Origin: a candidate division WOR-3 bacterium
GTDB taxonomy: Bacteria > Hydrothermota > Tepidihabitantia > Tepidihabitantales > Tepidihabitantaceae
NCBI GenBank assembly: GCA_965648905.1
Contig: CBFGIT010000001.1
Location: 64,001-128,000, forward strand
Reading direction: 5' to 3'
Length of the DNA stretch: 64,000 nucleotides
Shown: piece after piece, positions 6,178 through 33,880 of the stretch
Layout of the letters: every line of letters starts with the position of its first letter
Position numbering within the stretch: position 1 is the stretch's first letter
Made by a program: the position numbers and the translations under genes
Notes under the pieces: generated by a model
Told to the model about the DNA's origin: nothing
What the model saw: the letters and a program-made list of their open reading frames with translations, nothing else
Database searches by the model: none

Positions 6178-8028
6178 CTACAGCTTGACCAGCGTTACCG
6201 GACCTGGGCGAGCTGCTGAATCGACGCGGCGCACAACATAGGTGCCGGCAGGAAGTTCACTCAGGTCCAGCTCGATGCTGACGTCAGTTCCAGAACAGCC
6301 TACTGCCATGAGGAGCTGGCCGGCTATGTCGTAGATACCGAATGTCTTGCGGCCTGGCCCGGTCACGCGCAACAGAGCGCGCGACCCAGTGACCGGGTTG
6401 GGCCAAAGCGATAGCCGCTCCGGCCGAGTCGGGGCAGCCGGTGCTTCCACGCCGGGCACCGGACCAGCAATAACCAGCTTGCCATAAGCCGATGACGCAA
6501 GCAGGGAGTCTCCAGACAGCTCGGTCCGCCACCAGCCCGGCCAGGTACTGTCGCCGAGCATGCCGAGGAAAGCAACTCCAACCGTATCGCCGGTCGGGTC
6601 AATGTCCAGCTTGTACGGCAAAGTGCCGACGGGAACCGCGGCCTCGAACACAAGGCTTCCACCCGCCACGCTCACCGCAGCCTGTGAGCCCGCGACCGGC
6701 GAAGGCGGCCCCATGACACCGGCGCGGACATAGCGGTACAGGAGCTGGCTGACGCCCTGCTCGTTCACCAAGGCAAAGTAAGCGCCCTCGCTCATGTCAG
6801 CCGGCCACCGGCCGTCGTTGTTCTCATCGCAGAGCAGGACCACCTGGTCGAACGTGTCACGCCGATGCACTGCTGGCATCTCCGCGGCGATGTAGAGGTA
6901 AGCCGAATCGTGCACGGACCAGCCGCGGACACTGCCAGCCGGGAACGAAAGTCCGTAGACACCGCCGACATTGGAGGCGTCAAAGAAAGCTGCCTGGTCC
7001 CATTCATCCGGCATGAGCACGCCGTCAATCAACGGCGCCGGGCCCGCCGAGAATGAGGAACCGATAGTATCGGTCGAGACCATCAAGTGGGTTCGCATCG
7101 TGTCGTTACCCGGAACCTGGTCGCCAGGCAAACTGGTGAAGCACTCGACCTTGTATCCGGACCAGAGCTCGGCATTGGGAGTCCATGTGCCGGTGCACGT
7201 GACCACGGCCGAGTCAGAAGGCGCAATCGAGCCCAGGACCAGGTTCTCGCTGAATATCCGGTTGCCGGCTGAGTCGATGCGTACCGTTACCGGCACGTTG
7301 GTCTGGGCCGCAGTGCCGAGGTTCGCCACCAGGCAGCTCGGCGTAACCGGAATGCTGCTGTGGAGCCGACCGCCTGCAGGTGCGATGATGCGGCTGACGG
7401 CAACGTCGTTGGCCGGACGGGACAGAATGATGTCGTCGGCGAAGACCTTCGCCCAGGGCGTCCCTCAGCCGCCGCTGGTCCAGGCGTACAGCGCGACCCC
7501 GACCTTGCGCACCCGTGCACGGCTGACTCCGCGCAGATTCTGCGCCAGCTCGTCAGCCAGATTCATCTCGTACTGCTGCCAGCCCGGATTGGTCACTTCA
7601 ATCAGATGGAAGGTATCGGACGGGGCCCACGTGCAGTACTGGTTGTGGTAGTAGAAGTAGGTTTCACCCAGGACCGCGCCGGAAGAGTCAAGAAAACTGA
7701 CCATGATGCTTGCGACCGGCCAGCACGTGGACGAACCGCCACCCAGTTCGAATGCTGCCCAGAACGACAGGTCCATGGACAAAGTCGTGACCGGCACGAC
7801 CTGACGCAGAGCCAACCAGCCTGGCCCGGCGTAAAGGTAGCCTTGAGCTTCGTAGTCCGGGTCAGGATGGTAGGTGACGTCGCGGCCGAACGTGACCGTG
7901 CCGCTGCCGCCCTGTTCCTGATTCCAGCCCACGGTCAACTCCTGCTCAAAGTCACCGTTGGTGAGCAGATTCTGGGCTGGGGTCAGGCCCAGAGCGAGCA
8001 ACGAGCAGACGATTACTCGGGCAATCAT
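6178..8028 (-). CDS. Secreted multidomain protein with C-terminal sorting-like domain; putative selenoprotein (in-frame TGA 7465-7467)
   Basis: ORFs 7465..8028 and 6178..7329 share a frame, joined by 45 stop-free codons (TSGG*GTPWAKVFADDIILSRPANDVAV...). Signal peptide, NLLTNGDFE, CTD (WPNP...YDIAG...LPAGTY). Hairpin 11 nt after the TGA. Confidence 0.72.
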
Positions 8029-8052
8029 AGAACCTCCAGTAGCATCTCTAGG

Positions 8053-30308: not shown

Positions 30309-33300
30309 TCATGCGGGCGCTGGTTCGGGTTCGGGCGTGCGGTATCCGGCGAGTTTGACCGAGATGAGTTTCGAGATGCCCGGTTCTTCCGCGGTGACCC
30401 CGAAGACGACGTCGGCCCGTTCGACCGTCAAACGGTTGTGAGTGATGATGACGACCTGGGTGGCGTGGGCGATGCGGCGCAGGTAGTCGGCGAAGCGGGC
30501 CGCGTTGGCGTCGTCGAGCGGAGCGTCGACTTCGTCCAAGAAGCAGAAGGGTGCCGGGGTAACCTGGTAGAGGGCGAAGAGGAGCGAGAGGGCAAGGAGG
30601 GCTTTTTCGCCGTCGGAGAGCTGTTCGAGGCGTTTGGGGTTCTTGCCCCGAGGTTTGGCAATGATGGCGATTTCCGATTCGAGGGGGTTGGCTTCGTCGA
30701 GGAGAACCAGGTCGGCTTCGCCTTCGAGGAAGAGCTGTTTGAAGGCCTGCTGGAATCCGGCCCGGACGCCGGAGTAAGTCGCGAGGAACTGGTCGCGGGC
30801 GTGCTGGTCGATTTCGGCAAGGGTCTGGTTGAGGTTGAGCCGGGCCTGAGCGACGTCCTCGCGCTGGCGGCGGAGGTTCTGGAGGTCGAGCTTCTCCCGG
30901 CTGTAGTCGGTGTCGGCAAGGGGGTTGACCTGACCGAGTGCAAGGAGGCGCTGGCGCAGGGCAGCGAGGCGGGCGGCAGCGTCGGGCAGGGTCTGAGGCT
31001 GGAGCCGGGTGATGTCGGTGCCGCAGGTCGTTTTCGCCTCGTCGGCGATTGCCGCGAGGCGCAGGGCGATTTCGCGGAGCCGGAGCCGCTGGTCGAGGAG
31101 CAGGGATTGCTCACGTTCCTGGCCGGCGCGGAGTTCGCTCAGGTTCTGTTCGAGTTCTTCTTCGGACTGGGCAAGGTCGGCAAACTGGAGCCGGTCTAGT
31201 TCGGCTTCGAGGTGCAGAAGCTGGTGGCGGGCCTGGTCGAGTTCGAGCGCAGCGTCGGCGGTCTGGCGTTCGAGGGCGGCGGCATCGTCATGGCAGTTGG
31301 CGGCGGTGAGTTCGAGTTCGGCGATGCGGCGGCGCGCCTCGTCAATCTGACGTTTGGCAAAGGCGCTCTCGATTTCGAGGCGGGAGAGGGTCTCGCGCGC
31401 GCGGCCGAGTTCGGCGAGGAGTTCGGCCGATCGTTCGAGTCCGGCGCGAACCAGTTGTTCCTGGGCCGCGACGTCCTGACCCGACTGCTCGAGCAGTGCT
31501 GCCGTTGCCTCAACCCGGGATGAGTTCTGGGCGAGCCGGGTCTGGACATCGGAGAGTGAAGCCGGGGCAGAGCAGGACCGGCCCGGGCGGGCCTGGAGAC
31601 GTTCGTGTTCGCGTTCGAGTTCGTCAACCTGAGCCGCCAGGGCACTGCGGAGGGCGTCCTGGGTATGAGCCTGGCGCTGGAGGTCGGCCAGCTCGACCTC
31701 GCGCACGCCCAGGTCGTTCTCAATTTCGTCGCGGCGCTGAAGAAGCTGCGCTTCGTCGGATGAGAGCCGGGCCTGTTCGGTTTCGATTTCGGCGAGGCGG
31801 CGGAGATGCTCATCGCCGAGCCGCGGCGCGCCGAACGGGCCGGGACCGGTTCCGGCAATGATGAGTCGGCCATCGCTTGAGCGGCACCAGCCGTCCTGGG
31901 TTACGAAGGACCAGTCCGGATGAGCCGCGGCCAGGCGGTCAAGGTCGGCAACGCCGGCCACAACCAGACAGCGCCGAACCATGGCGACGAGGGGCGCAGG
32001 CGTGAGCGGGTCGAAGTCGACGTACTGGACCAGCGGCGAGAGGATGGCGTCGTCTTCGGGCGGAGCAGGCGAGGCAGAGTGCGGCGTATCGGAGGAAGGC
32101 GGGGAGGTGAAGGTGAAAAACCCGAAGGTGAGGTCGGGCCGGGCCTGGACTAGGGCAGTAATCCGTTCTGAGTCGGGGCCAAGAGTGGTGACGAGGAAGT
32201 CGGCGACCGAGTGCAGCGCCGCCTCAAATGCACGTTCCCAGCCCGGACGGATCGAGAGGAATTGACTGACGCTGCCGAACAGGGTGTCGCCGAGCAGGGT
32301 CCGGCAGACTTCGGCCTGGTCGGCCCGAGTTCGGGTTCTGAGCACGGCGAGGTCGGTTTCGCGCCGGACCCGTTCCTGATTGAGGCGGGTGTGGGCGTTC
32401 CGGAGGTCTTTGAGCCGCTGGTTCAGGCCAGCCAGTTCGGTGCGCAGGGTTTCGGTGCGCCGGCAGATGGCCGCGACACTTTCGCGGAGCACGGCCCGAG
32501 TCGCGTCGGCCTGCTCAAGTGCGGCCCGGGTCTCGGTCAGTCGGGCCGCAAGCGCGGCCTGTTCTTCGGCCAGCCGGGCCTGTTCCTCCGACTCGTTCTC
32601 CTTCAGCGCCTCGACCCGGGCGAGTTCGGCCTGGAGCGCGGCCTGCTGTTCCATGAGGTCCTTGAGCTGGTGCTGCAGCGCCGCGTCGTGGTTCTTGAGG
32701 CTGTAGAGCTTTTCTTCTCCGGCCCGAGTCGCCGACCGCTCGGCTTCAAGTGTCTGCTGATACCGGGCTACCAGTTCGCCGGCTTCGGCCAGCCGGGCAA
32801 TGGTCCCGGCAAAGGCCTGTTCGAGCCGGGCAACACTTTCCAAGAGAACCTGGCGTTCCTGGTCGGTGCGGGCCGCGGCCGCGGCAAGGAAGTCAATCCG
32901 CTGCCGGGCCAGCAGAATCCTGCCCTCGAGTTCGGCAACGACCCGGCGTTGCTCGTGCACCCGGCCGGCGGCCTGGTCCCGAGTCGCCTGAAGGTCGCGG
33001 AGTCTGGCCCGCTGGGTCTTGAGCGTCTCGTCGAGCCGGTGGATTTCATTGATGCGGGCACTGGCTGCCTGTTCCAGGACGCGGGCATCGGCCTGAAGAC
33101 GAGCCTGCTCGCGCTCGAGTTCGTCGTATTCTTCCTTGAGCGCGGCCAGGCGCAGCTCGTTTTCCTCGGCCCGGAGCCGGTTGTGGGCCCGGAGCCGGGC
33201 GGCCTGACGAGCAAGGCTGCGCACGAGCCGCTCGCGCTCGGCAATGATGTCGTCAAGGCGGAGAAGGTCGGCCTCGGTCAGGGCGAGTTTGCGTTGACAT

Positions 33301-33812
33301 TCGTCTTTGGCGTCCTGGTACTTGGCCAGGGTCGCGGCCTCCTCGAACATCTTACGGATGTTGCCCGAGATGATTTCGCGCATCTGACGGAGGTCGAAGA
33401 TTGAGTAGGCACGGGTGCCGGTGCCCGAGGACAGAAAGACGTCCTGAATATCCTTGAGCCGGCAGGGTTGACGGTTGAGGAAGTACTCGCTTTCTCCCGA
33501 GCGGAAGTAACGCCGGCGGATTTCGATCTCTGAGGCTGGCCCGGCGTCGTCGTCCGCGGCCAGTACCAGTCTGACCTCGGCGTAGTTGGTCGGCGGAACG
33601 GTGGCGGTGCCGCCGAAAACAACGTCTTCGTTACGGCCACAGCGCAGCAGGGAGAACGACTGCTCGCCGAGAACCCAGCGCAACGAGTCGAGCACATTGG
33701 TCTTGCCGCAGCCATTGGGCCCGACAATCGCATTGATGCCCGGCGCGAAGCGCAGTACGGTCCTTTCCTGGAAAGACTTGAAGCCGATGAGCACGAGCTC
33801 GCGGATGCGCAC
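30309..33812 (-). CDS. smc: Chromosome segregation protein SMC
   Basis: GFKSF, GPNGCGKT, long coiled coils, LSDGEK, LDEVDAPLD, ITHN. Start moved to GTG 33812, just after TTGACT-17-TATATT. Confidence 0.93.
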   Translation of the reverse strand: MRIRELVLIGFKSFQERTVLRFAPGINAIVGPNGCGKTNVLDSLRWVLGEQSFSLLRCGRNEDVVFGGTATVPPTNYAEVRLVLAADDDAGPASEIEIRRRYFRSGESEYFLNRQPCRLKDIQDVFLSSGTGTRAYSIFDLRQMREIISGNIRKMFEEAATLAKYQDAKDECQRKLALTEADLLRLDDIIAERERLVRSLARQAARLRAHNRLRAEENELRLAALKEEYDELEREQARLQADARVLEQAASARINEIHRLDETLKTQRARLRDLQATRDQAAGRVHEQRRVVAELEGRILLARQRIDFLAAAAARTDQERQVLLESVARLEQAFAGTIARLAEAGELVARYQQTLEAERSATRAGEEKLYSLKNHDAALQHQLKDLMEQQAALQAELARVEALKENESEEQARLAEEQAALAARLTETRAALEQADATRAVLRESVAAICRRTETLRTELAGLNQRLKDLRNAHTRLNQERVRRETDLAVLRTRTRADQAEVCRTLLGDTLFGSVSQFLSIRPGWERAFEAALHSVADFLVTTLGPDSERITALVQARPDLTFGFFTFTSPPSSDTPHSASPAPPEDDAILSPLVQYVDFDPLTPAPLVAMVRRCLVVAGVADLDRLAAAHPDWSFVTQDGWCRSSDGRLIIAGTGPGPFGAPRLGDEHLRRLAEIETEQARLSSDEAQLLQRRDEIENDLGVREVELADLQRQAHTQDALRSALAAQVDELEREHERLQARPGRSCSAPASLSDVQTRLAQNSSRVEATAALLEQSGQDVAAQEQLVRAGLERSAELLAELGRARETLSRLEIESAFAKRQIDEARRRIAELELTAANCHDDAAALERQTADAALELDQARHQLLHLEAELDRLQFADLAQSEEELEQNLSELRAGQEREQSLLLDQRLRLREIALRLAAIADEAKTTCGTDITRLQPQTLPDAAARLAALRQRLLALGQVNPLADTDYSREKLDLQNLRRQREDVAQARLNLNQTLAEIDQHARDQFLATYSGVRAGFQQAFKQLFLEGEADLVLLDEANPLESEIAIIAKPRGKNPKRLEQLSDGEKALLALSLLFALYQVTPAPFCFLDEVDAPLDDANAARFADYLRRIAHATQVVIITHNRLTVERADVVFGVTAEEPGISKLISVKLAGYRTPEPEPAPA

Positions 33813-33880
33813 GAGCAAATATAGAAACCTCGTCCGCACAAGTCAACTGACGCTTGAACTGAATCGGCTGCGACCGAGCG

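Follow-up and report, generated by a model that had tools for sequence, protein, structure and literature searches.

The stretch of DNA considered here (the window) comprises 64,000 nucleotides of the genome of a candidate division WOR-3 bacterium (assembly GCA_965648905.1, contig CBFGIT010000001.1, positions 64,001 to 128,000 of the forward strand). On its minus strand lies a reading frame that runs from an ATG at 8028 to a TAG at 6178-6180 and is open over 616 codons save for one TGA at 7465-7467 (codon 188), in the context TSGG-U-GTPWAKVFADD. Comparison of homologous sequences supports the view that this TGA is a genuine, conserved codon for selenocysteine (Sec, or U in sequences), followed by a covarying selenocysteine insertion sequence (SECIS), in a family of selenoproteins, predicted to be exported, with the fold of a carbohydrate-binding module (CBM). 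The decoding mechanism is already known; the novelty lies in the family itself, in its fold and in its predicted location.

The gene as a whole (6178..8028, minus strand; 616 codons and the TAG) keeps its frame across the TGA in homologues. A Shine-Dalgarno-like GGAGG at 8033..8037 can be read directly from the sequence, 4 nt 5' of the ATG at 8028-8026, and residues 1-19 (MIARVIVCSLLALGLTPAQ, 7972..8028) form a predicted signal peptide, in a layout that the paralogues share. Under translation table 11 the locus splits into an open reading frame (ORF) of 187 aa with the signal-peptide-like N-terminus and a separate downstream ORF, with about 428 codons remaining 3' of the TGA up to a sorting domain at the C-terminus. 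The earliest possible start after the TGA is a GTG at 7329, 45 codons further on, and the sequence before it holds no Shine-Dalgarno-like motif comparable to that of the ATG. An earlier note on this DNA had described a single in-frame TGA at codon 188 and a downstream half of about 430 codons that lacks a signal peptide of its own and ends in a sorting-like domain; when the frame was re-read its coordinates and motifs proved correct, and a TIGR04183 tail was found at the C-terminus.

Conservation of the TGA and of the hairpin behind it

Homologues were sought by a six-frame search of 40 relatives and of the window's own genome, with the read-through protein as query. The N-terminal 200 residues returned many copies, nearly all with exactly one TGA, and the C-terminal parts of the same proteins gave matches without any TGA. 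Each of the 27 first-round domains had U in a single common column, which an insertion shifts in two distant paralogues. A profile of the aligned domains, searched against 272 genomes of the phylum at E<=1e-8, located the domain in 107 of them, many with 2-9 copies; 150 matches were listed, with 113 further ones, and exactly one TGA was present in all 150 among the matches listed. The window's own genome has eight copies. Tandem pairs are frequent in the phylum (for example G019:C22:20557-22124, G021:C44:21710-24404, G147:C11:29875-31355 and G186:C5:80001-82830).

Alignment of the column for Cys or TGA had been proposed in the earlier note as a check on its reading, and the outcome favours that reading. 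Among 58 distinct domains from fetched loci the column holds U in 56, Cys in one (L047) and Ala in one (L048), and Trp, Arg or Gly in none. Cys stands there in a few homologues that are free of TGA, namely P0005 (HSCGDGW), P0036, which is the same as L047 (TSCPPPF), and P0058 (GNGCEA). In public sequence data, 346 of 1.84 billion cluster representatives (clusters at 50% identity) match the domain profile at E<=1e-3, and 117 of the 152 domain instances in the 150 matches listed end exactly at the TGA column, showing that public gene calls cut the family at this codon. The cluster members include proteins of 187 aa named 'hypothetical protein', some of them labelled candidate division WOR-3. TGA is the stop of 478 of the 1082 open frames of at least 400 codons in the window's genome, so there is no genome-wide reassignment of TGA.

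A 16-nt palindrome, GGCGAAGGUCUUCGCC (7453..7438), begins 11 nt 3' of the UGA. RNAalifold resolves it into a 6-bp stem (arms 7453-7448 and 7443-7438) closed by a 4-nt loop, GGUC (7447-7444), and the same nucleotides (7438..7453, minus strand) code for AKVFA of the last beta-strand of the domain. The position and the 11-nt spacing given in the earlier note are therefore right, but the 2-nt GU loop that it drew cannot form. An outer helix, GGGAC/GUCCC, which the note had placed around the stem, exists in this sequence; it was rejected as part of the element, as its pairs form in only 47% and 30% of cells across 27 homologues. The 18-nt element has a folding energy of -8.9 kcal/mol, and its loop starts 17 nt from the UGA here and, by codon offsets, 20-26 nt from it in relatives. 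A 2026 review of prokaryotic selenoproteins (PMC13188914) gives, in its section 5, a consensus model of the bacterial SECIS (bSECIS) with a UGA-to-loop range of 16-37 nt. The present element, with its 4-nt loop that has G first (GG), its 6-bp stem, its 17-nt spacing and its energy, fits the model as set out in that section, and the earlier description of the hairpin as SECIS-like is further borne out by compensatory covariation.

The first 27 sequences form all seven proposed pairs in every cell (100%), and three of the pairs have compensatory changes. The 56 Sec-type domains were then compared in 23-nt windows anchored on a conserved Val codon of the protein alignment, independently of the RNA structure; 322 of 322 cells pair, and five of the seven pairs are changed on both sides (25 cells). 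None of 500 shuffles reaches any of these measures, and windows slid along the sequence pair in 29-64% of cells. Some of the compensatory changes are synonymous (GAG..GUC to GAA..GUU), and others appear as coupled amino-acid changes in the encoded strand, which reads AKVFA (35), AEVSA (17), ARVLA, AQVCA, AWVYA or AEVFA. The RNA structure thus constrains the sequence of the last beta-strand, and the alternation of AKVFA and AEVSA across the family follows from the location of the SECIS within the codons of that strand. If the hairpin indeed acts as a SECIS, this would be a clear case of such an element dictating the sequence of a structural beta-strand (AKVFA as against AEVSA).

Hairpins that combine a stem of 6 bp with an [AG]GU[CU] loop number 185 in the window's genome. 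An in-frame TGA within a long open frame precedes 12 of them, and eight of these 12 sites are the eight family copies. The remaining four (C6, C36, C47 and C50) were discarded as selenoprotein candidates, their frames being rich in Arg, Ser and Pro and non-coding in appearance. The SECIS regions of the selD genes of the same genome fold without any architecture obviously shared with the family hairpin. In the Cys-type paralogue L047 (G005:C1), positions 324-346 keep five of the six stem pairs and an AGUC loop, which suggests a fairly recent conversion of Sec to Cys in this sequence; the hairpin of the Ala-type paralogue L048 is more eroded.

Fold, predicted export and the proposed cysteine partner

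The AlphaFold2 model of the Sec-containing domain (residues 20-206, 7411..7971), in which Sec was modelled as Cys, is a beta-sandwich with a predicted local distance difference test score (pLDDT) of 96.3. Its last strand (model residues 173-184) is encoded 3' of the UGA, so that the domain needs residues beyond this codon, and Sec188 falls in the loop that joins the last strand to the one before it. The nearest folds found by VIA-align are 5w6h_A (Z 15.0, root-mean-square deviation 2.3 Å, 143 residues aligned), 8xmz_B (13.8), 4d0q_A (12.8), 2zew_A (12.2) and 1gui_A (11.1), and Foldseek matches to CBM-like folds have E values of 3e-8 to 1e-5, TM scores of about 0.5 and a probability of 1.00. 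The beta-sandwich jelly-roll of CBMs is thus recovered with Z 10-15 to several CBM families; no Pfam CBM family matches the domain at E<=1. A thioredoxin-like fold with CxxU or UxxC was not found, the model being all-beta and the motif here GGUGT, with CxxU in three of 58 relatives. The description of the protein in the earlier note as non-thioredoxin and carbohydrate-binding-like agrees with these matches. The domain resembles CBM4, CBM16, CBM61, the hyaluronan- and porphyran-binding modules and the C-terminal domain of phage CBA120 tailspike 4 in fold and in its use at the N-terminus of secreted proteins with several domains, but differs from them in sequence (9-22% identity) and in its predicted selenium, which the fold-match listings mention for none of these modules.

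Behind this domain, residues 207-317 (7078..7410) match a CARDB/Ig-like domain weakly and may possibly form one (PF07705, E 0.022, 15.4 bits against a cut-off of 22.7). They are followed by a middle domain of about 210 aa (residues 318-530, 6439..7077), which is common to three longer paralogues or orthologues and conserved in their alignment; it has no Pfam match at E<=10 and its best sequence match in the PDB has an E of 0.69. A full-length AlphaFold2 model built from a 4-sequence alignment reached a pLDDT of 40.5, too low for use. The N-terminal domain recurs in paralogues and orthologues of other layouts: proteins of about 300 aa add just the tail to it, those of about 640 aa have behind it a module of about 350 aa without assignment, and in others it is followed by Kelch repeats. 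In the 2727-aa protein P0016, from a public metagenome, three tandem copies of the domain without Sec or Cys are followed by Kelch repeats and Ig-like domains, so that the fold is also in use without a Cys-Sec pair.

Residues 541-616 (6181..6408) form a C-terminal sorting domain of type A of the type IX secretion system (T9SS), with 23.7 bits for TIGR04183 against a cut-off of 23 and 23.5 bits for PF18962, below its cut-off of 27. The protein resembles T9SS type A cargo in its predicted signal peptide, in this tail, which is common to the paralogues, and in a homologue of the SprA translocon in the genome, which lies above the cut-off with 456 bits summed. It departs from typical cargo in the marginal score of its tail, and all the PorV-like matches in the genome are below the cut-off. 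Export is predicted on these grounds, and the single 616-residue product would leave through the Sec export pathway and then through the T9SS to the cell surface.

The Cys of the TCWP motif (Cys102, codon TGC in SSTCWP, 7723..7725) is near-invariant in the subfamily of the window, where it stands 86 positions from Sec188. Both this residue and the Cys of NQYCTW had been put forward in the earlier note as candidate partners of Sec; the latter is not conserved and drops out, and the former gains indirect support from a complementary pattern across homologues. Among the 56 Sec domains from the fetched loci, 34 have the Cys at the TCWP position, and in these a further Cys stands at -1 from Sec in one, at -4 in three and nowhere nearby in 30. 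All of the other 22 have a nearby Cys, at -1 in 19 (CU) and at -3 in three (CxxU). Each of the 56 thus has a Cys partner, either at the TCWP position or as a neighbour of Sec. In the 117 cluster representatives that end at the UGA, among the matches listed, the TCWP-position Cys is present in 17 (none nearby in 14, one at -2 or -4 in two, one at -1 in one) and absent in 100, of which 85 have Cys at -1 and three at -3. The pattern is read as evidence that position 102 is spatially next to Sec and that a Cys-Sec dyad is probably the working unit of the domain. A subfamily that includes L058, L059 and L054 reads G-C-U-x-G-H-C, a CU motif with a second Cys four residues past Sec, and the TGA-free P0037 reads G-C-A-E-G-H-C, with Ala in place of Sec and both cysteines kept.

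On the reading proposed here, Sec188, in the loop that leads into the final beta-strand of the lectin-like (CBM-fold) sandwich at the N-terminus, would pair with Cys102 of the TCWP loop, most relatives using an adjacent Cys (CU, sometimes CxxU) for the same purpose. The dyad might form a reversible selenylsulfide; alternatively, it might act as a chelator of soft ligands, for instance a chalcophile metal or the sulfur of a thiol or polysulfide. In either event it would give a binding module on the cell surface its reactive site. The pair could also be nothing but a structural cross-link. Selenylsulfides have a lower redox potential, and where a disulfide would be lost in reducing, sulfidic surroundings outside the cell, such a bond would persist. 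The proteins are predicted to be extracellular, relatives belong by their record titles to candidate phyla without cultured members (WOR-3, Stahlbacteria and TA06 among them), and two residues 86 positions apart in the window's subfamily could staple two loops together. In the wider family, however, the vicinal Cys-Sec form dominates (85 of the 117 UGA-ending representatives among the matches listed), and linking two residues that adjoin each other cannot staple anything, such bonds being a mark of reactive centres in known proteins. Moreover, Table 1 of PMC13188914 shows the families with a CU motif to be mostly metal-handling or redox proteins. A purely structural bond therefore seems rather unlikely, and a reactive site is favoured over it; the dyad is given about an even chance of being a redox or soft-ligand site and not a purely structural bond.

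Selenocysteine machinery and the decoding of the TGA

The genome that contains the window (99.6% complete, 60 contigs) encodes SelA, SelB with a wing-helix 3 domain, a tRNA-Sec with anticodon UCA and two SelD proteins whose genes each have an in-frame TGA. In the stretch G000:C8:88040-89141, outside the window, selB (wing-helix 3 match 89016-89141) lies directly upstream of one TGA-containing selD, and the second Sec-type selD is at C4:87631-88554. Aragorn reports one tRNA with the anticodon UCA and types it as Sec. The complement of selA, selB, selC and selD, whose presence the earlier note had wished to see confirmed, is therefore in place, with two copies of selD. The Sec gene and selA are 52 kb apart in this genome.

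Across the phylum, SelA is found in 135 of the 272 genomes and the distribution of the domain follows it closely. When the lists were compared by hand, 103 of the 107 domain-positive genomes, which are related to one another, had a SelA match, and no domain match occurred in any of the 15 SelA-free taxonomic families listed (74 genomes). Moreover, a family copy lies about 0.4-10 kb from selA in eight genomes from at least four taxonomic families (G171:C137, G038:C37, G173:C1, G153:C48, G211:C133, G210:C14, G040:C59 and G187:C233), the gap being 395 bp in G171:C137.

Taken with the conserved column and the covarying hairpin, these findings make it very probable that the UGA at 7465-7467 encodes selenocysteine, and the combined reading, in which Sec is decoded and 6178..8028 is a single gene, is held with scarcely less confidence. 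The SelB/tRNA-Sec system would decode the codon, directed by the 6-bp hairpin with its GGUC loop starting 17 nt 3' of it.

Hairpins 3' of stop codons can stimulate read-through in other systems. The UGA might be read without Sec, by a near-cognate or suppressor tRNA that inserts Trp, Cys or Gly, or through pausing or stimulation at the hairpin independently of SelB. This is improbable for a family that is confined to SelA-bearing lineages and whose members adjoin selA in several genomes, the more so as Cys, the usual replacement for Sec, stands at the column in TGA-free homologues and the sole UCA-anticodon tRNA found by Aragorn is of the Sec type. The loop sequence and spacing also match the bSECIS model, as given in section 5 of PMC13188914.

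Termination at the TGA, which would leave two genes or a secreted protein of 187 residues with the downstream frame translated separately or not at all, is what gene callers annotate in their 187-aa 'hypothetical protein' entries, and TGA commonly ends genes in this genome. It is nevertheless very improbable here, since the downstream frame has no signal peptide and could start no earlier than the GTG at 7329, 45 codons past the TGA, and since the stretch in between is conserved and codes for the last strand of the beta-sandwich. The frame and the column are, moreover, kept in more than 150 genes, and a stop would part the T9SS sorting signal from its cargo. One in-frame stop in a metagenome-assembled genome might raise the suspicion of a pseudogene, or of an error in sequencing or assembly. 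Conservation refutes both and makes their chance negligible: it is strong on either side of the TGA, and the codon keeps its column in eight paralogues of the same genome and, across many assemblies, in 56 of 58 distinct domains.

Some observations weigh against selenocysteine decoding or against the dyad, or lend them no help. The domain occurs in four of the 137 SelA-negative genomes (G022, G199, G168 and G185, with a completeness of 76-96%). On its own, the 16-nt hairpin folds with only -7.3 kcal/mol, and an Rfam search of 7300-7600 at E<=10 returned no matching model, only unrelated families at chance level. Of the 100 UGA-ending representatives without the TCWP Cys, 12 show no Cys at -1 to -4 before the UGA, and the 56 domains from loci and the 117 UGA-ending representatives are sets that may overlap and whose members are related, not independent. 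P0005 and P0036 have Cys at the Sec column and Ser or Asn at the partner position, so that the partner is not obligatory in Cys-type homologues; P0015, P0099, P0116 and L048 lack both residues, and the fold therefore does not need the dyad. The neighbourhood does not point to any function: the gene is flanked by pyrE, pyrF and pyrD-like genes and, at its other end, by an unrelated ORF of 182 aa.

Relation to known selenoproteins

Most catalogued bacterial selenoproteins are thioredoxin-like redox enzymes. The present family would put Sec into a lectin-like beta-sandwich bound for the cell surface, adding both a fold and a location to the selenoproteome. Its genes resemble those of the SelB/bSECIS system, for which E. 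coli fdhF is the paradigm, in the in-frame UGA, in the intragenic hairpin right after it with a small loop that starts with G and contains GU, and in the accompanying selA, selB, selD and tRNA-Sec. They differ in that the protein is unrelated and that the element is a minimal one, a perfect 6-bp stem with a GGUC tetraloop, to which the binding of SelB is putative. The element is also near-fixed in sequence, because the hairpin doubles as beta-strand codons.

The motif GCUG is familiar from thioredoxin reductase. Most relatives in the present family likewise have a vicinal Cys-Sec, often as G-C-U-G, and share this with the CU-motif selenoproteins SaoL, HgcA, SaoC, MbdU, KCU-star and the Csac_0668 family, as these are entered in Table 1 of PMC13188914. 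By analogy, selenylsulfide or soft-metal chemistry akin to that of the CU-motif proteins is plausible for the dyad. The family is set apart from them by its beta-sandwich, its predicted location as T9SS cargo and its sequence, which no NCBIfam model of theirs matches, and the window gene is further removed in that it reads G-G-U-G and appears to use a Cys 86 residues upstream.

Selenoproteins outside the cytoplasm are also on record. The other exported families included in PMC13188914, as far as its tabulated entries go, are DUF1573 UGC, a UshA-like family, an FCYXU TonB-dependent receptor, GOS_C/NF045500 and a selenobacteriocin with SGUG, and the S-G-U-G of many relatives in the present family resembles the last of these motifs. 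Their folds and families are nevertheless different, and none of their models matches the protein at E<=1. A search of NCBIfam release 20.0 and Pfam at E<=1 gave only the T9SS tail and weak Ig matches, with no match to NF049953 ('DG' GUxG) or to TIGR04081 (selenobacteriocin SGUG). The review counts 119 prokaryotic selenoprotein families and subfamilies, and no row of its Table 1 has this domain, motif or context. Secreted, signal-peptide-bearing, extracellular or carbohydrate-binding selenoproteins are not mentioned in the main texts of the review and of the BSepDB paper, their supplements and the BSepDB database lying outside this search. Nor is the family described in the titles and abstract openings listed for the literature on selenoproteins in connection with T9SS, bSECIS and metagenomes, Electryoneota, WOR-3 or carbohydrate-binding modules. 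The earlier remark that this is not a known selenoprotein family therefore holds for every catalogue examined, that is, Pfam, NCBIfam and Table 1 of PMC13188914.

The family is effectively invisible in databases because gene callers cut it at the UGA, leaving the N-terminal pieces as hypothetical proteins of 187 aa and depriving the cargo domains of their signal peptide. Once it is recognised, hundreds of surface proteins in candidate phyla without cultured members could be annotated correctly. The family is also a natural experiment, in that forms with a distal Cys, with a vicinal CU, with Cys only and without the dyad can be compared for what Sec adds outside the cell. It is a tentative and at present rather doubtful proposal that the domain is a selenium-dependent, lectin-like surface module, the first of its sort, performing extracellular chemistry through the Cys-Sec dyad in anaerobic, uncultured WOR-3-type bacteria. 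If so, it could trap polysulfide, elemental sulfur or thiol-bearing polymers covalently through selenylsulfide exchange, or it could bind chalcophile metals or the surfaces of metal sulfides tightly. With 2-9 copies per genome, the family could then be a main reason why the phylum retains its Sec machinery.

Two minor observations concern other tRNA predictions by Aragorn. One is a tRNA-Arg in the window at 32748-32842 (plus strand), unusually long at 95 nt, with the anticodon TCG at position 38, which lies within a minus-strand ORF of 1176 aa (30309..33839). The other, reported for the same genome, is a single 'tRNA-???' of 90 nt with a two-base anticodon.

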